IMG/VR virus record: IMGVR_UViG_2693429524_000017
Location: 1-20,091 of that record
Length of the DNA stretch: 20,091 nucleotides
Origin: a virus
Taxonomy: Duplodnaviria > Heunggongvirae > Uroviricota > Caudoviricetes
Reading direction: 5' to 3' (one strand)
Made by a program: the position numbers and the translations under genes. Under the pieces are notes generated by a model, which had not been told where the DNA came from, ran no database searches, and saw nothing but the letters and a program-made list of their open reading frames with translations. Positions 10,847 to 18,172 of the stretch are shown here, in pieces. Position 1 is the stretch's first letter. The number at the start of each line of letters is the position of its first letter.

Positions 10847-12253
10847 ATGGCTACTTGGCAAGGAACAAACGGCGGATTGTTGGCTGGTATCGGCGGCGTC
10901 AACTCAAACGCTCCGAGCGTAAATGACATCGGCAATACGCTTCAGCTTATCAGGCAGAACAATGATATTGAGCGTTCAGGCGCTAACAATGTTGGGCTGA
11001 CTGCTTTGCAAGGCCTTTCAGGTATTGCGGGGGTGTTTCAGCAGGAAAAGCAGGCTCAGCGGCAGAAAGAATTTCAGCAGGCATACGCTAATGCTTATGC
11101 GTCTGGTGATCGCGGTGCTTTGCGTCAGTTGGCTACTCAATATCCAGACCAGATTGAATCCGTTCGTAAAGGCATGGGATTCATTGATGAAGACCAGCGT
11201 AATTCTATCGGCACATTAGCGGCTGGCGCACGCCTTGCGTCATCGTCTCCAGAAGCAATGCAATCATGGCTGCAAAACAACGCCAAGGAACTGACTCGCG
11301 TCGGTGTTGACCCTAACAGCGTTGCTCAGATGTATCAGCAAAACCCTTCAGGATTTGGTGAGTTTGTTGATCACCTTGGGATGGCTGCTCTCGGTCCGAT
11401 TGATTACTTCAATGTTCAGGACAAGATGGCTGGTCGTGAAATTGACCGAGGCAGGCTGGCAGAGACAATCCGCAGCAATCAGGCTGGTGAAGCACTTCAG
11501 GCGAGAGGGCAAAACCTTTCCTATCAGTCAGCAATGACTGGGCACAATATCGCAGCACAACGCTTGGCTCTGGATCAGCAAGAGTTCGGGTTTAAGATGC
11601 AGCAAGCGCAGGAAAAGGCTCAGCAGTTGATTAGTGAAGCACCTAAGCTGTCAGTAAACATGGAAAAAGCCATCGAGACGGCTGTAAACAATGCCACAGC
11701 ATCATCAAACTCAGCCAATTCTATGAGTGCGCTTGCTCAACAGTTCAGAGCAGAAAAACCAACGACAGGTTTGTTCGGTAACGCACAGAACATGTTCGCA
11801 AAACTTACCGGAAGCGATACGACATTGCGTGATTTGCGCATTCGCCAAAATGCCCTTGTTAACAGTCAGGTTCTTAAATTCCTACCTCCCGGCCCCGCAA
11901 CGGATAAAGACGTTGAGATCGTTCGTCAGGGTGCACCAACTGACATGGATAACCCTGAGACGGTCGCAAGATGGCTTGATGCTATGGCAAACCTTGAGCG
12001 ACGAAACGCGCAGTTTAATGAGTTTAAAGCCGAGTGGATGAGCGCGAATGGCAACCCTGGACAATCGCGTAATGGCGGTCAGATATTGGGGTTGGATGTT
12101 AAAAAAGGTGAATCATTGGGGAGTGCCGTTAAGCGGTATATGTCAATGAATACTGACGCAGCGCCAGCACAAGATTCGACACCTTCAGGTGAACCACGGA
12201 ATCAGGTTGGATCATATACCTCAAAATCAGGCATTCAATTTACGGTGGAATGA
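10847..12253 (+). CDS. Ejection protein gp20-like, 468 aa
   Basis: Position and size match P22 gp20 (recalled as ~471 aa); AAGGGG RBS. Confidence 0.8.
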   Translation: MATWQGTNGGLLAGIGGVNSNAPSVNDIGNTLQLIRQNNDIERSGANNVGLTALQGLSGIAGVFQQEKQAQRQKEFQQAYANAYASGDRGALRQLATQYPDQIESVRKGMGFIDEDQRNSIGTLAAGARLASSSPEAMQSWLQNNAKELTRVGVDPNSVAQMYQQNPSGFGEFVDHLGMAALGPIDYFNVQDKMAGREIDRGRLAETIRSNQAGEALQARGQNLSYQSAMTGHNIAAQRLALDQQEFGFKMQQAQEKAQQLISEAPKLSVNMEKAIETAVNNATASSNSANSMSALAQQFRAEKPTTGLFGNAQNMFAKLTGSDTTLRDLRIRQNALVNSQVLKFLPPGPATDKDVEIVRQGAPTDMDNPETVARWLDAMANLERRNAQFNEFKAEWMSANGNPGQSRNGGQILGLDVKKGESLGSAVKRYMSMNTDAAPAQDSTPSGEPRNQVGSYTSKSGIQFTVE

Positions 12254-14130
12254 TGAAAGTAACTGCAAACGGTAAGACATTTACCTTCCCTGATGGTACG
12301 AGCACGGAAGATATTGGCACCGCCATTGATGAGTATTTTGCTGGTCAGGCTGTTCAGCAACAAACAGTTAATCAGGCCAATAATGCACCAACACGGGAAG
12401 AACCATCATTAATGCAACAAGCTGGCGATTGGCTCACTGGTGGTCAAAGTGCAGGGCAAATTGCAGAACAGGCTGGTCGTGGTCTGGTAAACATACCATT
12501 CGACGTATTACAGGGCGGCGCAAGCCTGATTAATGCAATCAGCCAGGGGCTTGGTGGCCCCAAGGTTTTGGATGATGTTTATCGTCCAGTCGATCGACCG
12601 ACAGACCCTTACGCGCAAGCTGGTGAAACAATTGGTGGGTATCTCCTGCCAATTGGCACAGCGGCAAAAGCTGCTGGAGCGCCAGCAAAGCTCGCTGGAG
12701 ATATCGGTTCCGCAGGAAACATGATTGCAGGTTCTCTTGCTGATGCTGCAAATCAGGAGGGCGATTTCGCACAAAATGCAGCTAAAAATGCCGGAGTTAA
12801 CCTTGCCGCTCAGGGGGTTCTTTCCGCAGCAGCAAAGGGAATAGGGCGTGGAATTACTGCTGTTCGTGGCGAAATATCACCAGCAGATCAGCAATTGCTC
12901 AAGCGTGCCGCTGCGGCAGATGTACCAGTTATGACATCGGATGTAGTTTCTCCAAAAACAAAACTTGGCAATCAACTGCAGGGTTACTCAGAAGGAGTCA
13001 TAGCTGGTACTGGACCAATGAGAGCCGCACAGCAGGATGCCAGAACCAAGCTTGTTAATCGCTTCACCGAAAAATACGGCGACTACGATCCATCTGTAGT
13101 CGTTGATAGTCTAAAGTCAGGCGTTGCAAGGGAAAAATCGTTAGCCAAGTCAAAACTAAACAGCCTGTCAGGAAGAATGGTTGGAAAGCCAGTTGATACA
13201 AGTGGCGCCATAAGAGCTATCGACGGAGCAGTAAACGAACTTGGGAAACTTAAAGGTGTTTCTGACACCCAGACCATTTCTGCGCTTAATGATTATAAGA
13301 ATGCCATTCAGGAGATAACAAATGGAGATGATGCCTTTGAGTTACTTGATAAGCTGAGAACTCAGTTCCGCATTGACGTAAAAGGCGATCGTACAGTTCT
13401 GCCATCAATGTCGCAAACAATGGTCGACAGGGTCTATAACTCGCTAACCAATAGCCTTAGTAAATCTATAGCGAAAGGACTTAGCCCAAAAGATGCTTCA
13501 GCATGGAGAGCGGGAAAAGCTGATTATGCAAAAATGGCAACACATGCAACTCAAACGCGCCTTAAAAACGTTCTAAACAAAGGAGATTTAACTCCCGAGG
13601 CTGTAAATACCATTGTGTATGGACAATATGGGTCAGATATAGCTCGATTGTACGGGAAACTCGATCAAAAAGGTAAAGACATGCTAAGGGCGGCATATAT
13701 CAGCAAAATAGCTGACAAGGTAGGTGACAGCCCTCAGAAAATGATGACCGAGCTTGGCAAGCTGCAAAAACAAGCAAATGGTCAGGTGTTTAAAACTGTA
13801 TTTGGTGGGAAGAACGGAAAAGAGATAGAGGGGATGTTATCTATTCTCGATGCTACCAAAAGAGCATCTGAGGCTAATGTTGTGACGAAGACTGGCATGA
13901 CACTCGCGCCTTTGGTAAGGGTTATTGGTAACCTAAAAACCGGAGGCGCGCTATTGGCTGGGGAAACAGGGATTGGCCTTATGTCGAGGGTTTATGAAAG
14001 CCCTATGACCAGGAATGCGCTCTTACGTCTGGCAAACACCAAAGCAGGAACGCCAGCCTATGAAAGAGCATTAAGTAACGCTGCAAATGCCATCAGACCG
14101 CTGCTTGCCACTGAGGCAACACAGCAGTAA
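12250..14130 (+). CDS. Ejection protein gp16-like, 626 aa
   Basis: Start overlaps the gp20 stop (ATGATG); last gene of the conserved ejection-protein block; Ala/Gly-rich. Confidence 0.8.
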   Translation: MMKVTANGKTFTFPDGTSTEDIGTAIDEYFAGQAVQQQTVNQANNAPTREEPSLMQQAGDWLTGGQSAGQIAEQAGRGLVNIPFDVLQGGASLINAISQGLGGPKVLDDVYRPVDRPTDPYAQAGETIGGYLLPIGTAAKAAGAPAKLAGDIGSAGNMIAGSLADAANQEGDFAQNAAKNAGVNLAAQGVLSAAAKGIGRGITAVRGEISPADQQLLKRAAAADVPVMTSDVVSPKTKLGNQLQGYSEGVIAGTGPMRAAQQDARTKLVNRFTEKYGDYDPSVVVDSLKSGVAREKSLAKSKLNSLSGRMVGKPVDTSGAIRAIDGAVNELGKLKGVSDTQTISALNDYKNAIQEITNGDDAFELLDKLRTQFRIDVKGDRTVLPSMSQTMVDRVYNSLTNSLSKSIAKGLSPKDASAWRAGKADYAKMATHATQTRLKNVLNKGDLTPEAVNTIVYGQYGSDIARLYGKLDQKGKDMLRAAYISKIADKVGDSPQKMMTELGKLQKQANGQVFKTVFGGKNGKEIEGMLSILDATKRASEANVVTKTGMTLAPLVRVIGNLKTGGALLAGETGIGLMSRVYESPMTRNALLRLANTKAGTPAYERALSNAANAIRPLLATEATQQ

Positions 14131-14857: not shown

Positions 14858-14918
14858 ATTAAATGACATTTGACATAGTTGGATACTTAGCTGCGGCTAT
14901 CAAGATGGAGGTATGTTT

Positions 14919-15362
14919 ATGCTCACTTGTTTTGATGTCGCCGACTACTTCTTGGCGCATTGCGATGAAGAAAGTGGCGACATTATCTCTAACCTAAAAA
15001 TTCAGAAGTTGACGTATTATGCCCAAGGGTTTTCTCTGGTTCTTCTGGGTAAGCCGCTATTTAATGAGAAAATTGAAGCCTGGATGCATGGGCCAGTAGT
15101 TCCTGAATTGTATCGTAAATATAGGGACTGTGGTAACGGCGCTTTACCTGCGCCAGAAAACTTTGACGCTAAAAAATTCAGTGAAGATGAAATTGAATTG
15201 CTGGATGAGGTGTATAAAGTTTATGGTCAGTTTTCTGCCTGGAAACTGCGCAATATGACTCACGAAGAGCAGCCATGGAAAGATGCTTACATTGAGGGTG
15301 CGGTTAGCCAAGAAATCACGCTTGATTCTATGAAAGGTTTTTTCAAAACGTTAATTAACTGA
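14919..15362 (+). CDS. Panacea (DUF4065, COG3600 GepA/SocA-like) domain protein; putative antitoxin or immunity component, about 147 aa
   Basis: Translation contains NLKIQKLTYYAQGFSLVLLGKPLFNEKIEAWMHGPVVPELYRKY, which I recognise as the Panacea core pattern. GGAGG at 14907-14911 favours the ATG at 14919 over the track start at 14913. Stop is 5 nt before the next ORF. Confidence 0.6.
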   Translation: MLTCFDVADYFLAHCDEESGDIISNLKIQKLTYYAQGFSLVLLGKPLFNEKIEAWMHGPVVPELYRKYRDCGNGALPAPENFDAKKFSEDEIELLDEVYKVYGQFSAWKLRNMTHEEQPWKDAYIEGAVSQEITLDSMKGFFKTLIN

Positions 15363-15367
15363 CGTGT

Positions 15368-15790
15368 ATGTCTAGAGTTAAGGGAAGAATAAAACAGAGG
15401 GATAAAGAGAGCTCTGCTACTGTTGGCCTCTCTATCCATCACGAATCTCATGATGTAGACAAAAGTCCGCCTGTATTTTCTCTTAGATACCTACAAAAGG
15501 GGTATTGCCTAGATTGCTGCCAAAAGCATGAAAAGGCAGCATTTGCAGATAGGCTGTTCAGGTTAAGTCAGATGTCATGGGATGAGATACGAAAATCTGA
15601 TAAACACGGGCTTGGGACGGAAAAAATTGCCAGAAACGCGATAAAGGCTCCGATTCCTAAGCATGTTACTCAAGATGTGGATTTCATTGCGTTCAGATTT
15701 TGCTCTAAGGCACCTATGGTTGGTTATAAGATAGGAGCCACTTTTTATGTCTTATGGCTCGACAGGGAGTTCAAGCTATACAAGCACTAA
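15368..15790 (+). CDS. Hypothetical basic protein, 140 aa; candidate toxin/effector partner of the upstream Panacea-domain protein
   Basis: ATG 5 nt after the upstream stop with no independent Shine-Dalgarno, so probably translationally coupled. K/R/H-rich, with a C-terminal segment VDFIAFRFCSKAPMVGYKIGATFYVLWLDREFKLYKH. I cannot assign a family. Followed directly by an intrinsic terminator. Confidence 0.55.
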   Translation: MSRVKGRIKQRDKESSATVGLSIHHESHDVDKSPPVFSLRYLQKGYCLDCCQKHEKAAFADRLFRLSQMSWDEIRKSDKHGLGTEKIARNAIKAPIPKHVTQDVDFIAFRFCSKAPMVGYKIGATFYVLWLDREFKLYKH

Positions 15791-15791
15791 T

Positions 15792-15817
15792 AAAACCCAC
15801 CGTCAGGTGGGTTTTTT
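15792..15817. terminator. Intrinsic terminator, probably bidirectional, between the convergent genes 15368-15790 (+) and 15834-16037 (-)
   Basis: CCCACC-GTCA-GGTGGG hairpin flanked by AAAA upstream and TTTTTT downstream, giving a U-tract in either orientation. Confidence 0.75.
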
Positions 15818-15833
15818 GTTGGAGATAAAATGG

Positions 15834-16037
15834 TTAACCAAATCGATCCTTAAAGCGCCTATCGCTGTTGCGTCTCTCCATTTTACTGTTGCAGTACGGA
15901 CAAAGATGCTGTTTCTTTCCATCGATAGTCCATGTGAAGTACTTTTTCTTAAATCCAGCACCACAGATATCGCAACTTCTTGGTTTAAACATACTGGCTA
16001 TGAAGATAAGAACAACAAATCCTATGATCCATTCCAT
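15834..16037 (-). CDS. Small membrane-anchored protein with a CxxC...CxxC zinc-ribbon motif, 67 aa
   Basis: N-terminal hydrophobic helix WIIGFVVLIFIASMF, then CDIC...CPYC and a basic tail. AT-rich; ends at the bidirectional terminator. Confidence 0.5.
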   Translation of the reverse strand: MEWIIGFVVLIFIASMFKPRSCDICGAGFKKKYFTWTIDGKKQHLCPYCNSKMERRNSDRRFKDRFG

Positions 16038-16178
16038 ATCATGTACCTGTTTTAACTTTATTTTTTGATTTTTAGGGATTAATCAGAAACTTTATCTTGC
16101 GATTAAGCAAAGCTACTAGCTAACAAAAGAGTGCGTATACAATCAATCGTTTCACATCAACCTCAACAAGGAGAAATC

Positions 16179-16364
16179 ATGACCATAGAAGAACGCCTGA
16201 ACAACATTGAGTTGAACCAAACCCTGCTTGACCAGCGACTTTCAGATCTTGAGCTTAAAGATCTTGATGCGCAAATATCAGAAGCAGAAGCCAAGCTCTC
16301 CAGCTTAAACCACCGCAAGAAGCAAATCCGCAACAGAATTACTCAGGGACGCGGAAGCTGTTGA
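16179..16364 (+). CDS. Small coiled-coil hypothetical protein, about 61 aa
   Basis: ATG at 16179 with AAGGAG 5 nt upstream. Heptad-like leucine pattern. Its 3' end overlaps the convergent minus-strand ORF by 26 nt. Confidence 0.45.
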   Translation: MTIEERLNNIELNQTLLDQRLSDLELKDLDAQISEAEAKLSSLNHRKKQIRNRITQGRGSC

Positions 16365-16548
16365 GGTGGGATGCTAGGTCTCTATCGTTAAAATCAAGGC
16401 TGCTAATCATTTCATTGTAAATGGCGTTTTTATCTTCCATTGGCAGTCTTGAGTAAACCAGGCACAGAGCATATTTCAGGGAGTTTAGCTCCTTCTCTAG
16501 CTCTTCCTTGCTTGACGTTGTTGACTTAATAAACTGTTTTTTGTTCAT
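16339..16548 (-). CDS. Small hypothetical protein co-transcribed downstream of mnt, 69 aa
   Basis: ATG overlaps the mnt stop (ATGA on the minus strand), so probably translationally coupled to mnt. No family recognised. Confidence 0.5.
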   Translation of the reverse strand: MNKKQFIKSTTSSKEELEKELNSLKYALCLVYSRLPMEDKNAIYNEMISSLDFNDRDLASHLNSFRVPE

Positions 16549-16796
16549 TTTTCATCCTTACCATACATGGTCTTTAGCGCCTCAACATCGTGTTCAAGAT
16601 CTATCAATCGTGATGCTATAGTTGCAAGGTCTAGTGCTTGAATGTGTTTATTTTTTTCGGTCCACGCTTCAAGTGCCGCGACCATCTCAGCATTTAATGA
16701 ACGAGAATTAGCCTCAGCCAGTTCAATAAGACGTTCCTTTATCTCTACAGGAAGCCTCAGATTCACTTGAGGGTTTTTGTACTTACGATCAGACAT
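16545..16796 (-). CDS. mnt: Mnt-like ribbon-helix-helix repressor, 83 aa
   Basis: N-terminal RHH motif NLRLPVEIKERLIELAEANSRSLNAEMVAAL aligns with my recollection of P22 Mnt; same length; transcribed divergently from arc/ant as in P22 immI. Confidence 0.8.
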   Translation of the reverse strand: MSDRKYKNPQVNLRLPVEIKERLIELAEANSRSLNAEMVAALEAWTEKNKHIQALDLATIASRLIDLEHDVEALKTMYGKDEK

Positions 16797-16824: not shown

Positions 16825-16853
16825 AGGATATGTAGGTATCTATTGACTATCAA
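16825..16853 (-). promoter_or_regulatory. Pmnt-like promoter (minus strand: -35 TTGATA, 17-bp spacer, -10 TATCCT)
   Basis: The -35 is the reverse complement of 16848-16853 and the -10 of 16825-16830. An AGGA Shine-Dalgarno lies 7 nt before the mnt ATG. Overlaps Pant back-to-back. Confidence 0.5.
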
Positions 16854-16871
16854 TGCGTACCTAAATACTAT
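16843..16871 (+). promoter_or_regulatory. Pant-like promoter (-35 TTGACT, 17-bp spacer, -10 TACTAT) driving arc, ORF67 and ant
   Basis: TTGACT at 16843-16848 and TACTAT at 16866-16871; GGAGGA RBS at 16893-16898 before the arc ATG. Confidence 0.6.
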
Positions 16872-16901: not shown

Positions 16902-17042
16902 ATGAAGGTAAAAACACTGCGTATGCCAGAGAAGCTAGAAAAAATTCTTGAAGAAAAAGCAAAGGAAGAGTGTCGCTCATTCAGCGCAGAAGTAATTAAA
17001 CGGGTGATGGACAGCCTGAAGAGAGAGGGGATAACTGTATGA
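16902..17042 (+). CDS. arc: Arc-like ribbon-helix-helix repressor, 46 aa (absent from the ORF track because it is under 60 aa)
   Basis: ATG at 16902 with GGAGGA upstream. Translation MKVKTLRMPEKLEKILEEKAKEECRSFSAEVIKRVMDSLKREGITV aligns with P22 Arc as I recall it, notably RSFSAEVIKRVMDSLKREG against RSVNSEIYQRVMESFKKEG. Confidence 0.8.
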   Translation: MKVKTLRMPEKLEKILEEKAKEECRSFSAEVIKRVMDSLKREGITV

Positions 17043-17242
17043 GTAAAGAATGTTGTTTCTGCGGCATTAGCGAATCAGACGCTGATCAAACATACATTTA
17101 CTCTAAAGAAACAGGTCGGATGCTGTGTAGTGACTGCGTGTTGGACATCATAAGATACAAGCATCTTGGATGTTCTGCCAGCATTAGCAATATAGGTGAA
17201 GTATATGAAGGGAAAGATATAACTGATAGAGCAGAAAGTTGA
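17039..17242 (+). CDS. Small Cys-rich (zinc-ribbon-like) hypothetical protein, 67 aa, translationally coupled to arc
   Basis: ATG overlaps the arc TGA (ATGA). Cys cluster CCFCG...CSDC...C. Sits between arc and ant, where I recall P22 having only an intercistronic region. Confidence 0.55.
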   Translation: MSKECCFCGISESDADQTYIYSKETGRMLCSDCVLDIIRYKHLGCSASISNIGEVYEGKDITDRAES

Positions 17243-17340
17243 AGCCCCAACTGCTGGAACAGTCAGGGCTTCGGTATCGTAAAACCACACATAGGAATTA
17301 ACGACATGAAAAGTATAGCAACAGCAGTATCTACTATCAA
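17236..17340 (-). ncRNA. sar: Candidate sar-like antisense RNA locus: minus-strand promoter inside the ant 5' end, transcript running antisense across the ant RBS to a hairpin at 17241-17272
   Basis: Minus-strand -35 TTGATA (reverse complement of 17335-17340), 17-bp spacer, -10 TATACT (reverse complement of 17312-17317), placing the start near the ant ATG. An extended hairpin GAAGCCC..ACTG-CTGGAA-CAGT..GGGCTTC lies at 17241-17272. The predicted length of about 65-70 nt is similar to the P22 sar RNA as I recall it. The span includes the promoter. Confidence 0.45.
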
Positions 17341-18172
17341 TGTACCATTCCACGGCGCAGAGCTTTATGTTGTCAATCACAACGGCGAACCGTATACCCC
17401 AATGAAACCTATCGTTGAAGGCATGGGTATGGATTGGGCTTCACAGTTTACGAAAATGAAGCAGCGGTTTAAAACCTCCATTGTGAAAATCACAATGCAG
17501 CTTCCTGGTGATGAACAACGCCGTGAGATTATTTGTTTGGCACTTCGCAAACTTGCAGGTTGGCTGCAAACCATTAGCCCTAACAAAGTCCGCCCTGAAA
17601 TCCGCGACAAGGTAATCCAGTATCAGGAAGAGTGTGACGATGTGCTCTACGAATACTGGACTAAAGGTCATGTAGTTAACCCACGCAAAGCTAAAAAGGC
17701 GTTGCCGGGTAAAATTACCACTGAACAGCAGGAAGCCATTAAACAACTCGTCATGAGTCGCGGTCAGTCTCTGCCAAAAGAAAAACAGGCGAAGGCGATG
17801 ATCACCATGTGGTCGTCACTGAAATCTCATTTTGGGTGTTCATACAAAGAAATCAGCGATGAGCAGTTTACCGAAGCTCTGTCACTTGCAGCTCGTATTC
17901 CACTTGAAGGCGAGTTCATTGGCAAGTCGAAACATAATGAGATGAGTTGTTTTGATTGGAGGATGAATGTTCATAACCTGAACTCGGCGTGCATTCATCT
18001 TGATGCCATGTACAGAATATGGAGAGACGAAATGGAACCCGCTTTGCGATTGCTTGGCTCTCCGGTTGCGACCAGATTTTGCGGAAGAATTGCAGATTGC
18101 TATTCCGTAACTGCAAGCGTTAAGAAAAGTCTGGAGAATGCCGCAGGGCTGAAAGGCTTACAACCATTTTAA
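17306..18172 (+). CDS. ant: Antirepressor Ant (P22 Ant-like), 288 aa
   Basis: N-terminal segment YTPMKPIVEGMGMDWASQFTKMKQRF...ICLALRKLAGWL...YQEECDDVLYEYWTKG is typical of phage antirepressor N-domains; located after arc as in P22 immI. Confidence 0.8.
   Translation: MKSIATAVSTINVPFHGAELYVVNHNGEPYTPMKPIVEGMGMDWASQFTKMKQRFKTSIVKITMQLPGDEQRREIICLALRKLAGWLQTISPNKVRPEIRDKVIQYQEECDDVLYEYWTKGHVVNPRKAKKALPGKITTEQQEAIKQLVMSRGQSLPKEKQAKAMITMWSSLKSHFGCSYKEISDEQFTEALSLAARIPLEGEFIGKSKHNEMSCFDWRMNVHNLNSACIHLDAMYRIWRDEMEPALRLLGSPVATRFCGRIADCYSVTASVKKSLENAAGLKGLQPF

Follow-up and report, generated by a model that had tools for sequence, protein, structure and literature searches.

[quoted passage not shown] The immI region of phage P22 is a textbook regulatory region. 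It belongs to the "ant moron" located between gene 16 and the tailspike gene, where an Arc-family Mnt repressor is encoded divergently from arc and ant, a sar RNA is present, and variable small genes of unknown function follow mnt on the same strand (Villafane et al. 2008, PMC2629481). The variable genes described for the ant moron of P22-like phages include sieA, hkcC, and orf59a, and the region is mosaic and crossed by late transcription (PMC2629481).

The window analyzed here is a stretch of 20,091 nt from a tailed phage (IMG/VR record IMGVR_UViG_2693429524_000017). It contains a true P22-type immI with an Arc-family Mnt, whose homolog is annotated as mnt in CUS-3, together with arc, a sar RNA, and ant. 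The 46-aa Arc matches the Pfam Arc family with E = 3e-9, the sar RNA is found at 17237-17304 on the minus strand (Rfam RF00262, 80.9 bits against a gathering score of 43), and an ant-like ORF of 288 aa occupies positions 17306-18172. Downstream of mnt lies a cassette of two small genes, here named orf61 and orf69.

Organization of the locus

The features of the region are the following, in window coordinates. The two promoter-like sites come from a consensus scan only, and their position is analogous to that in the P22 annotation.

15792..15819, both strands: bidirectional intrinsic terminator, AAAACCCACC-GTCA-GGTGGGTTTT, with U-runs on both strands
15834..16037, minus strand: 67-aa ORF with a predicted transmembrane segment and a zinc-ribbon-like motif (weak zinc-ribbon matches only)
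16168..16173, plus strand: strong Shine-Dalgarno of orf61 (AAGGAG), doubling as the left mosaic breakpoint of the cassette
16179..16364, plus strand: orf61 (ATG 16179, stop 16364), 61 aa, phrog_7586, a single-helix, coiled-coil-like protein
16339..16364, both strands: convergent 3' overlap of orf61 and orf69, 26 nt
16339..16548, minus strand: orf69 (ATG 16548, stop 16339), 69 aa, phrog_16466, the distal cistron after mnt
16545-16548, minus strand: ATGA stop/start overlap, mnt TGA (16547-16545) overlapping the orf69 ATG (16548-16546)
16559-16555, minus strand: Shine-Dalgarno of orf69 (AAGGA), inside the last mnt codons, 6 nt before the orf69 ATG
16545..16585, minus strand: mnt/orf69 coupling junction, consisting of the last mnt codons (…LKTMYGKDEK*), the orf69 Shine-Dalgarno, and the ATGA
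16545..16796, minus strand: mnt, 83 aa, Arc-family ribbon-helix-helix repressor (Pfam Arc, E = 3e-10)
16853-16825, minus strand: Pmnt-like promoter site
16843-16871, plus strand: Pant-like promoter site, back to back with the Pmnt-like site (16825..16871)

orf61 and orf69 are convergent and share 26 nt at their 3' ends (16339-16364), exactly where the first-pass annotation had placed the overlap. Its observation that orf69 starts on the mnt stop codon holds as well, in the form of the ATGA at 16545-16548. Neither a terminator nor a conserved hairpin was found between the two genes; transcripts arriving from either side would therefore be antisense to the opposite gene, in support of the mutually antisense transcripts that had been proposed. 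In every locus seen, orf61 has the orientation of its late-operon neighbors, gp16 upstream and the tailspike gene downstream. The 67-aa ORF, encoded on the strand of mnt and orf69, sits between the terminator and orf61, and read-through from the mnt operon may reach it. On the left side of the cassette, homology to relatives begins at 16168/16169 or at the orf61 ATG (16179), while the recurrent right breakpoints are located at 16567 and 16585.

The locus departs from P22 downstream of mnt. In contrast to orf69, which would be coupled to mnt by the ATGA, P22 orf59a is annotated 99 nt downstream of mnt, without overlap, and is followed by the mnt terminator. No homology between orf69 and orf59a was found (BLASTP E = 0.53; hhalign probability 0.2%). 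P22 also lacks a plus-strand equivalent of orf61 in this region, and the cassette is absent from P22, CUS-3, and Gally. The earlier statement that P22 mnt has no such coupled partner holds in that orf59a is uncoupled and non-homologous, but the slot is not empty in P22.

Compared with phage morons in general, the cassette is similarly patchy among close, syntenic relatives and has sharp mosaic boundaries and an adjacent intrinsic terminator, and the genes that can take the place of orf69 include a typical host-benefit gene (Rap1a/Tai immunity). In contrast to a moron with its own promoter and terminator, the cassette contains no promoter, and the terminator is adjacent in only 20/63 loci. orf69 would borrow the mnt promoter by translational coupling, and orf61, which has no travelling promoter, is oriented in the opposite, late direction.

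Coding capacity and overlap of orf61 and orf69

A comparative alignment of the locus had been suggested by the first-pass annotation. In this comparison both reading frames are intact in all 44 related loci (35 distinct DNA versions) and show the signature of purifying selection. Variable sites are distributed 17/13/44 over the own-frame codon positions in the part belonging to orf69 only (chi-square p = 3e-9) and 23/12/42 in the part belonging to orf61 only (chi-square p = 2.5e-8). Pairwise dN/dS ranges from 0.08 to 0.17 for orf61 and from 0.04 to 0.12 for orf69. Both products have full-length HMM matches to PHROG families of unknown function, orf61 to phrog_7586 (E = 3.3e-44, positions 1-61 of 61) and orf69 to phrog_16466 (E = 5.5e-51, positions 1-69 of 69). 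The pattern of substitutions indicates that orf61 and orf69 are genuine, conserved coding genes under purifying selection.

It might be suspected that one of the ORFs, or both, are open merely by chance and that only the RNA or DNA is functional, as a 3' UTR or terminator region belonging to the mnt operon, given their short length, the lack of a family annotation, and the frequent omission of one of the two by gene callers. This suspicion is difficult to reconcile with the strong own-frame third-position bias, dN/dS values of 0.04-0.17, frames intact in all loci, Shine-Dalgarno motifs retained across at least 20 different contexts, and protein-level homologs at 37-50% identity. We regard it as barely credible, the substitution pattern having effectively refuted it.

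Searches of Pfam, NCBIfam, and PADLOC with the orf61 and orf69 products gave nothing above threshold, leaving the two PHROGs as the only family matches, and sequence-profile searches of the PDB returned only chance-level coiled-coil or helicase fragments. The AlphaFold2 model of orf61 is one long helix (residues 3-59, pLDDT 94) of a soluble, amphipathic protein devoid of hydrophobic segments, consistent with the coiled-coil label initially given to it. The orf69 product is predicted to be a small cytoplasmic three-helix protein (AlphaFold2, pLDDT 75); a Foldseek search with this model gave 0 PDB hits and only BFVD hits with E > 4.

PGAP applies the name XhlA family haemolysin to N-terminally extended calls of orf61. 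We rejected this assignment, as PF10779 scores 14.1 bits against a cutoff of 34.7 bits (E = 0.056), a weak coiled-coil resemblance, and a C-terminal membrane anchor is expected in the XhlA family whereas orf61 has no transmembrane segment. The extended calls (89-92 aa) run into the divergent upstream gene, and the extension is not conserved. The conserved start of orf61 is MTIEERL, preceded by its own Shine-Dalgarno.

Within the overlap, one strand encodes the conserved C-terminus of orf69 (LNSFRVPE*) and the other a poorly conserved orf61 tail (QGRGSC*). Only 7 of the 26 sites are variable, mostly at orf69 third positions. The overlap measures 26 nt in Enterobacteriaceae, 23 nt in Proteus, and 10 nt in Providencia. 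A conserved hairpin or bidirectional terminator inside it was considered and rejected: an imperfect hairpin at about 16310-16369 has folding z-scores of 0.03 and -1.3, and its fold is not kept in the diverged copies L004, L005, L052, and L054. Given its variable length and the lack of a conserved RNA structure, the overlap looks incidental. It would be a by-product of compaction, with an unconstrained orf61 tail crossing a constrained orf69 C-terminus, and mutual antisense probably follows from this arrangement rather than being the selected function.

The mnt junction and its exchangeable cargos

The Mnt tail is joined to the next gene by a portable junction (…YGKDxK*, AAGGATGnAAAATGA) that is conserved across all cargo loci. 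Both the ATGA and the Shine-Dalgarno in the mnt tail are kept across at least four Mnt sequence types, as far as Proteus and Rahnella. In loci without orf69, the same junction precedes a 105-aa secreted protein, a ClpP-like protein, or a Rap1a/Tai immunity protein (locus L063). Lambda-like PhiR12 phages share a 39-nt stretch of the junction at 97% identity, followed there by a ClpP-like gene. The junction is also kept on the transmembrane protein orf77 in Emek and as a relic in Providencia; in both, another ORF lies between mnt and the orf69 homolog. A stop/start overlap combined with a Shine-Dalgarno within mnt, as expected of a translationally coupled pair, was found in all orf69 loci and with the other cargos.

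Free combination is seen between at least four types of Mnt and three or more cargos. Each of the types MSDRKYKN, MSREEPQI, MAKGVSIS, and MARDDPHF was found with several cargos, and the overlap at the junction is -4 or -1 nt. These combinations demonstrate, at the level of the genomes compared, a combinatorial shuffling of Mnt types and cargos. Locus L050 retains mnt but has lost the orf69 next to it.

We propose that orf69 is a passenger, or moron, of mnt, occupying a cargo slot directly behind it and translated via the portable junction. The junction would supply the orf69 Shine-Dalgarno within the mnt tail as well as the ATGA overlap, and may double as a recombination linker by which Mnt types and cargo genes are freely shuffled. 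It resembles the boundary or linker sequences of lambdoid phages (e.g., the "bsq" features of CUS-3), in which short conserved gene-boundary sequences recur as recombination junctions. Unlike these, the mnt linker is coding, forming the C-terminal tail of Mnt, and carries a ribosome-binding site and a stop/start overlap. In the literature examined, no description of a conserved coupling junction or a combinatorial cargo slot was found. By analogy with the alternative cargos and with other prophage morons, we infer that orf69 is most likely a small cytoplasmic accessory factor expressed in the lysogen, where it would bind proteins and thereby serve host protection, superinfection exclusion, or host modulation.

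Type II toxin-antitoxin operons, too, can consist of a small ribbon-helix-helix gene and a second small gene that overlaps it by 4 nt, and the Mnt-like protein and orf69 could be read as such a pair, antitoxin first and toxin second. Gene order, the ATGA overlap, and gene sizes agree with this, and the mnt product gives weak FitA-like and RelB-like matches. Toxin-antitoxin operons, however, have fixed partners, whereas here both sides of the junction are swapped: orf69 stands behind four or more unrelated Mnt types and, in Emek, even behind the transmembrane orf77, and the same Mnt types precede the unrelated secreted, ClpP-like, and Rap1a/Tai cargos. Moreover, locus L050 kept mnt after losing orf69, the orf69 product has no toxin-family, PADLOC, or NCBIfam match, and the immI to which mnt belongs is complete, with arc, sar, and ant. 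A toxin-antitoxin pair is thus highly improbable.

Pairing and expression of orf61 and orf69

Among 5426 complete E. coli genomes, orf61 is present in 130 and orf69 in 74, and every genome with orf69 (74/74) also has orf61. The reverse does not hold, as orf61 occurs without orf69 in 56/130 of these genomes and in 26/63 viral contigs. The 63 IMG/VR loci with orf61 comprise 37 with orf69, 12 with the 105-aa cargo, 9 with the ClpP-like cargo, and 5 with a 3' remnant of orf69. orf61 is up to 99.5% identical irrespective of the presence of orf69 (H48). A homologous convergent pair is found in P22-like prophages of Proteus and Providencia at 37-50% protein identity. More distant relatives of orf69 (33-50% identity) occur in Providencia, Proteus, Rahnella, and Enterobacter; those of Rahnella and of an Enterobacter siphovirus have no orf61 at all. 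A scan of GTDB representative genomes for orf61 yielded no confirmed locus, because the family is too patchy to be sampled by one genome per species. Three additional HMMER hits (P0089, P0092, P0094) were repetitive, non-homologous sequences and were discarded. Judged from these occurrences, orf61 and orf69 are not an obligate pair, although the retained convergent arrangement and the 74/74 co-occurrence could reflect a functional link in addition to physical linkage.

The bidirectional terminator folds as such on both strands (-18.6 and -15.4 kcal/mol; z = -4.7 and -3.3), and the same hairpin is annotated as a terminator in Emek. In 20/63 related loci it is located directly upstream (4-5 nt) of the orf61 Shine-Dalgarno, and the gene further upstream differs among these loci, with at least six unrelated ones; in this window, the 67-aa minus-strand gene and 141 nt are inserted between them. 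In many other loci, a divergent gene starts within 25-35 nt upstream of orf61. Across at least 20 different upstream contexts of orf61, no conserved promoter was found, and upstream of orf61 in this window the consensus scan gave only a weak site that overlaps the orf61 Shine-Dalgarno. With a terminator 4-5 nt ahead, orf61 therefore lacks its own promoter in such loci, and since the homology block begins only at the Shine-Dalgarno, a promoter does not travel with the gene. We infer that orf61, a small, independent coiled-coil gene, is probably expressed from late transcripts, mainly Q-antiterminated ones; in P22, late transcription is described as crossing the ant moron into gene 9 (PMC2629481). 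In one direction, the terminator would stop transcription of the mnt operon; in the other, it would block transcripts of upstream morons. In the lysogen, the mnt operon transcript would cover orf61 with its antisense 3' end.

The only RNA-seq found for a lysogen carrying the cassette is that of Kapi1. [quoted passage not shown] This pattern does not fit simple co-transcription of mnt and orf69. The first-pass annotation had held orf69 to be co-regulated with the maintenance repressor. The conserved ATGA and Shine-Dalgarno junction favors such co-expression, but coupling is not specific to orf69, and with Kapi1 mnt undetected while the small genes are not so listed, co-regulation with mnt is no more than plausible. 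In the LF82 Gally prophage, mnt is induced 40-fold in macrophages (PMC9928086). Gally has mnt but neither arc, ant, orf61, nor orf69, and this induction is therefore uninformative about the cassette.

Two further explanations give orf61 a different role. The two genes could form a dedicated module in which they are expressed in opposite phases, orf69 in the lysogen from Pmnt and orf61 from late or other plus-strand transcripts, and antagonize each other. The antagonism could act across the overlap, through convergent transcription and antisense interference, or through direct neutralization of one protein by the other; one version would pair a lysogen effector with a lytic-phase antidote. The conservation of the convergent overlapping pair in Enterobacteriaceae, Proteus, and Providencia at 37-50% identity speaks for a module, as do the constant company of orf61 wherever orf69 occurs (74/74 E. 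coli genomes, 44/44 loci), the absence of a detectable terminator between the genes, and the 3' remnant that stays under the orf61 tail when orf69 is lost. Physical linkage of overlapping genes, however, accounts for the co-occurrence, and neither the length nor the sequence of the overlap is conserved, nor any RNA structure. The many orf61 copies without orf69, often beside unrelated cargo, and the orf69 relatives without orf61 also weigh against a module; being essentially identical next to unrelated cargo, orf61 is not co-adapted to orf69. We consider such a module rather unlikely. Still less likely is its extension to a functional overlap, a phase switch by which lytic orf61 expression would turn off the mnt operon on entry into late development, through reciprocal antisense and/or through a coiled-coil orf61 that directly binds orf69 or the oligomerization helix of Mnt. 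If it were true, orf61 would be a general late-phase "cap" or antagonist of whatever cargo mnt carries. A related anti-Mnt idea, with orf61 resembling the C-terminal helix of Mnt, was dropped since no such similarity was found.

orf61 could instead be expressed not late but in the lysogen, alongside other morons, from context-specific promoters such as one in the intergenic region of 141 nt (16038-16178), possibly damping the mnt operon by convergent transcription. In this window a promoter could indeed lie in these 141 nt, which together with the divergent minus-strand gene form a context common to 10 loci, and Kapi1_061 is not among the genes given as undetected in the lysogen RNA-seq. Elsewhere, the terminator 4-5 nt before the Shine-Dalgarno (20/63) or the divergent gene within 25-35 nt leaves no room for a promoter; the start of the homology block at the Shine-Dalgarno and the weak, overlapping nature of the sole promoter-like site point the same way, and we find lysogenic expression of orf61 unlikely.

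On balance, and with moderate confidence, we read the locus as the distal end of a prophage-expressed mnt operon within the variable ant moron, holding two independently selected accessory genes. With orf69 as one of several swappable mnt passengers and orf61 independent of it, the locus is a case of ordinary phage mosaicism rather than a new regulatory device, and the cassette reveals no new kind of mechanism. Its significance lies in the slot behind mnt: many P22-like prophages, and at least one lambda-like phage, appear to use it as a standardized docking site. The conserved Mnt tail would serve both as ribosome-binding site and as recombination linker for the exchange of diverse prophage-expressed cargos; apart from orf69, these include a ClpP-like, a T6SS-immunity-like, and a secreted protein. 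About 1.4% of complete E. coli genomes carry orf69 and about 2.4% carry orf61. Both genes are candidates for superinfection exclusion or host modulation, and the Mnt-tail junction may provide a simple rule for finding accessory genes expressed in the lysogen.

orf61 and orf69 in the immI region

The window represents the late region of a phage or prophage that is P22-like (Lederbergvirus-type), and contains a complete immI region between the gp16-like gene and the tailspike gene. Its relevant features are the following.

12250–14130, + strand, gp16-like injection protein, last of a run of + strand structural genes
14913–15790, + strand, upstream operon of two genes, within the same moron region
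15792–15819, bidirectional terminator
15834–16037, − strand, 67-aa ORF between this terminator and orf61
16179–16364, + strand, orf61 (61 aa; AAGGAG 5 nt before the ATG)
16339–16548, − strand, orf69 (69 aa)
16545–16796, − strand, mnt-like gene of the Arc family
16755–16780, + strand, hairpin resembling a terminator, with a T-run after it (CCTCAGATTCACTTGAGG GTTTTTG), within the 5′ part of mnt
16902–17042, + strand, arc
17039–17242, + strand, 67-aa cysteine-rich ORF (CCFC…CSDC, phrog_7150) coupled to arc, between arc and sar/ant
17237–17304, − strand, full-length sar antisense RNA (Rfam RF00262, 80.9 bits)
17306–18172, ant
18295, start of the tailspike gene, beyond the immI region

Both orf61 and orf69 are genuine genes. 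They lie where the first-pass annotation placed them, with 3′ ends overlapping by 26 nt, and the orf69 ATG indeed overlaps the mnt TGA as ATGA, preceded by AAGGA 6 nt upstream in the final mnt codons. The products are full-length matches to phrog_7586 (orf61) and phrog_16466 (orf69), both PHROGs of unknown function, and annotations of the pair already exist: orf61/orf69 in Salmonella phage Emek, Kapi1_061/062 in E. coli phage Kapi1. Protein searches returned 42–46 clusters per protein, with identities down to about 72–75%, from E. coli, Salmonella, E. albertii, E. marmotae, and Serratia. Across 44 collected loci (37 IMG/VR contigs, Emek, Kapi1, and four diverged metagenome or genome contigs; 35 distinct DNA versions), both frames are intact in every case. 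Variable sites at own-frame codon positions 1/2/3 number 17/13/44 in the orf69-only part (chi-square p = 3e-9) and 23/12/42 in the orf61-only part (p = 2.5e-8), and pairwise dN/dS is 0.04–0.17 for both genes. A non-coding reading of the ORFs was rejected. In the AlphaFold2 models, orf61 forms one helix (residues 3–59, pLDDT 94) and orf69 three short ones (pLDDT 75); neither protein has a signal peptide or membrane segment.

Judging from an ATGA at 17039–17042, arc, too, appears to have a translationally coupled passenger, the 67-aa cysteine-rich ORF, whose ATG overlaps the arc stop. This ORF is absent from P22; Emek has orf73 in the same position, and the gene coupled to arc in Kapi1 is ant itself. 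A strong promoter-like site (17340–17312, TTGATA-17-TATACT with TG) overlaps the ant start, an arrangement shared with P22. The first product of the upstream operon (14913–15790) is a protein of 149 aa with a Panacea/SocA-like antitoxin domain (Pfam PF13274, E = 2e-24), the second a protein of 140 aa whose NsnC-like (PADLOC) and MAG6450-family matches are weak; the operon looks like a PanA-type toxin–antitoxin or defence pair, and also stands before orf61 in Emek and in L051, a comparison locus.

The Mnt-tail junction and its cargo

In its DNA, the orf61/orf69 cassette is a mosaic block with standard ends. Leftward, homology to relatives extends as far as the orf61 Shine-Dalgarno or ATG (16168/16179), or beyond; rightward, it extends into the last 7 or 13 mnt codons (16567/16585), or beyond. 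All genes preceding orf69 share one tail, …(M/I)YGKD(E/G/A)K followed by the stop codon, encoded by AAGGATGnAAAATGA. This tail is seen on four Mnt types (MSDRKYKN…, MSREEPQI…, MAKGVSIS…, and the P22-type MARDDPHF…) and on Emek orf77, a small membrane protein. The junction therefore carries the Shine-Dalgarno and stop/start overlap of the downstream gene and functions as a linker in recombination.

Several alternative cargos occupy the slot behind mnt, orf69 being one of them. In orf61 loci without orf69, the same junction joins mnt to another gene, with an overlap of −4 or −1 nt: a 105-aa secreted protein (S.Kent 1-2-1, L061), a ClpP-like 178-aa protein (L062; lambda-like PhiR12), or a Rap1a/Tai-family immunity protein (E. 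coli ETEC1747, NZ_CP122722.1). Among 63 IMG/VR contigs with orf61, 37 have orf69 as the convergent gene facing it, 12 have the 105-aa gene, nine the ClpP-like gene, and five a truncated orf69 remnant; each Mnt type is found with several cargos. Escherichia phage PhiR12_1 (PV340549.1, 39120–41132) is a lambda-like siphovirus carrying an mnt–arc–antirepressor module with the ClpP-like cargo. The entire module lies between the tail (tail-tip) genes L and K. Its mnt matches the window at 97% identity over the final 39 nt; thus the immI module and its cargo junction move between phage types. In the P22-like prophage of ETEC1747, the predicted translational coupling of the Rap1a/Tai-family (T6SS effector immunity-like) gene to mnt suggests that prophages may shield the lysogen from T6SS attack via the mnt operon.

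A dedicated orf61/orf69 switch module is possible but disfavoured. In DNA searches of 5426 complete E. coli genomes, orf69 was found in 74, always together with orf61; orf61 was found in 130, 56 of them without orf69. In these 56, homology ends at or just past the orf61 stop codon, and their orf61 copies are up to 99.5% identical to that of the window and therefore not co-adapted to orf69. One locus (L050) has orf61 with a 36-aa C-terminal remnant of orf69, and L051 has two orf61 copies and lacks orf69. orf61 is thus independent of orf69. A toxin–antitoxin reading was rejected.

A profile search and an exhaustive HMMER search found orf69 relatives at 33–50% identity. In Proteus, a 64-aa gene is ATGA-coupled to a P22-type mnt and overlaps an orf61 homologue (37% identity, E = 2e-8) by 23 nt. 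The 63-aa gene of Providencia stands behind mnt and a 92-aa ORF, with a Mnt-tail relic in front, and overlaps an orf61 homologue (hhalign probability 91%) by 10 nt; both orf61 homologues start MTIEERLE…. No orf61 homologue accompanies the 69-aa gene of Rahnella, which is coupled to mnt, or the 71-aa gene of a siphovirus-like Enterobacter kobei prophage, which is beside the tape-measure gene with no mnt. This last gene has no companion and lies on the opposite strand, flanked by the tape-measure and DUF6246 genes of the tail cluster, a classic moron position.

Overlap, terminator and expression

The overlap is of variable length (26, 23 or 10 nt) and contains no terminator or conserved structure; mutual antisense of the two transcripts, as initially proposed, is thus unavoidable. 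Its orf69 strand encodes a conserved LN(S)F/YR motif; its orf61 strand encodes a tail (QGRxxC, KGAYL or NRQ) that is poorly conserved and modelled at low pLDDT. Most of the few substitutions are at orf69 third positions. This pattern is expected if the orf61 stop merely drifted into the neighbouring gene, and nothing indicates that antisense pairing is a selected feature.

No promoter travels with orf61 in the at least 20 different upstream contexts compared. In 20 of 63 loci, with at least six unrelated genes upstream, a hairpin (AAACCCACC-GTCA-GGTGGGTTTTTT) lies 4–5 nt ahead of the orf61 Shine-Dalgarno. It is annotated as a terminator in Emek, and its fold is that of an intrinsic terminator, with each strand having a U-run. 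On the + strand it would stop upstream-moron transcripts right before orf61; on the − strand it would end the Pmnt transcript once this is antisense through all of orf61. In the window, the same terminator is separated from orf61 by the 67-aa − strand gene and 141 nt. This gene, common to 10 loci, encodes a product with a hydrophobic segment at its N-terminus and a zinc-ribbon-like CxxC…CxxC motif, and may be the last gene that the mnt operon transcript reaches. orf61 always points in the late-operon direction, and P22 late transcription is described as crossing the ant moron into gene 9 (PMC2629481), from which we infer that orf61 is probably expressed mainly from late transcripts. The hairpin within mnt could halt + strand transcripts from orf61 short of Pant.

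The only RNA-seq of a lysogen with the cassette is that of E. coli MP1/Kapi1 (PMC12922286). That study describes mnt (Kapi1_063) as undetectable, below the detection threshold, in Kapi1 lysogens in LB and simulated intestinal fluid; its list of undetected genes does not include Kapi1_061 or Kapi1_062, and abundant + strand 'antisense' signal is described for the last third of the genome. These data fit + strand (late or spontaneous-induction) transcription across the region, and mnt–orf69 co-transcription stays putative. In contrast, mnt of the LF82 Gally prophage is up 40-fold inside macrophages (PMC9928086). The mnt operon, and its cargo with it, may be expressed in a strongly condition-dependent manner.

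Place in the ant moron

The region is not new: it is the highly mosaic 'ant moron' known from P22-like phages (PMC2629481). The earlier statement that P22 mnt has no coupled partner was half right: the slot is filled by orf59a, non-homologous to orf69, which lies 99 nt past mnt and ahead of the annotated mnt terminator. orf61 and orf69 are new members of the ant-moron accessory gene pool, of uncharacterised function and already listed in databases as hypothetical proteins. Two features seem to be undescribed in the literature surveyed: the standardised coupling junction in the Mnt tail, with its interchangeable cargo, and the recurrence of orf61 as a late-oriented 'cap' behind a bidirectional terminator. 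The case is a tidy example of modular phage evolution rather than a new mechanism, and the locus is a pointer to candidate lysogen-expressed factors.
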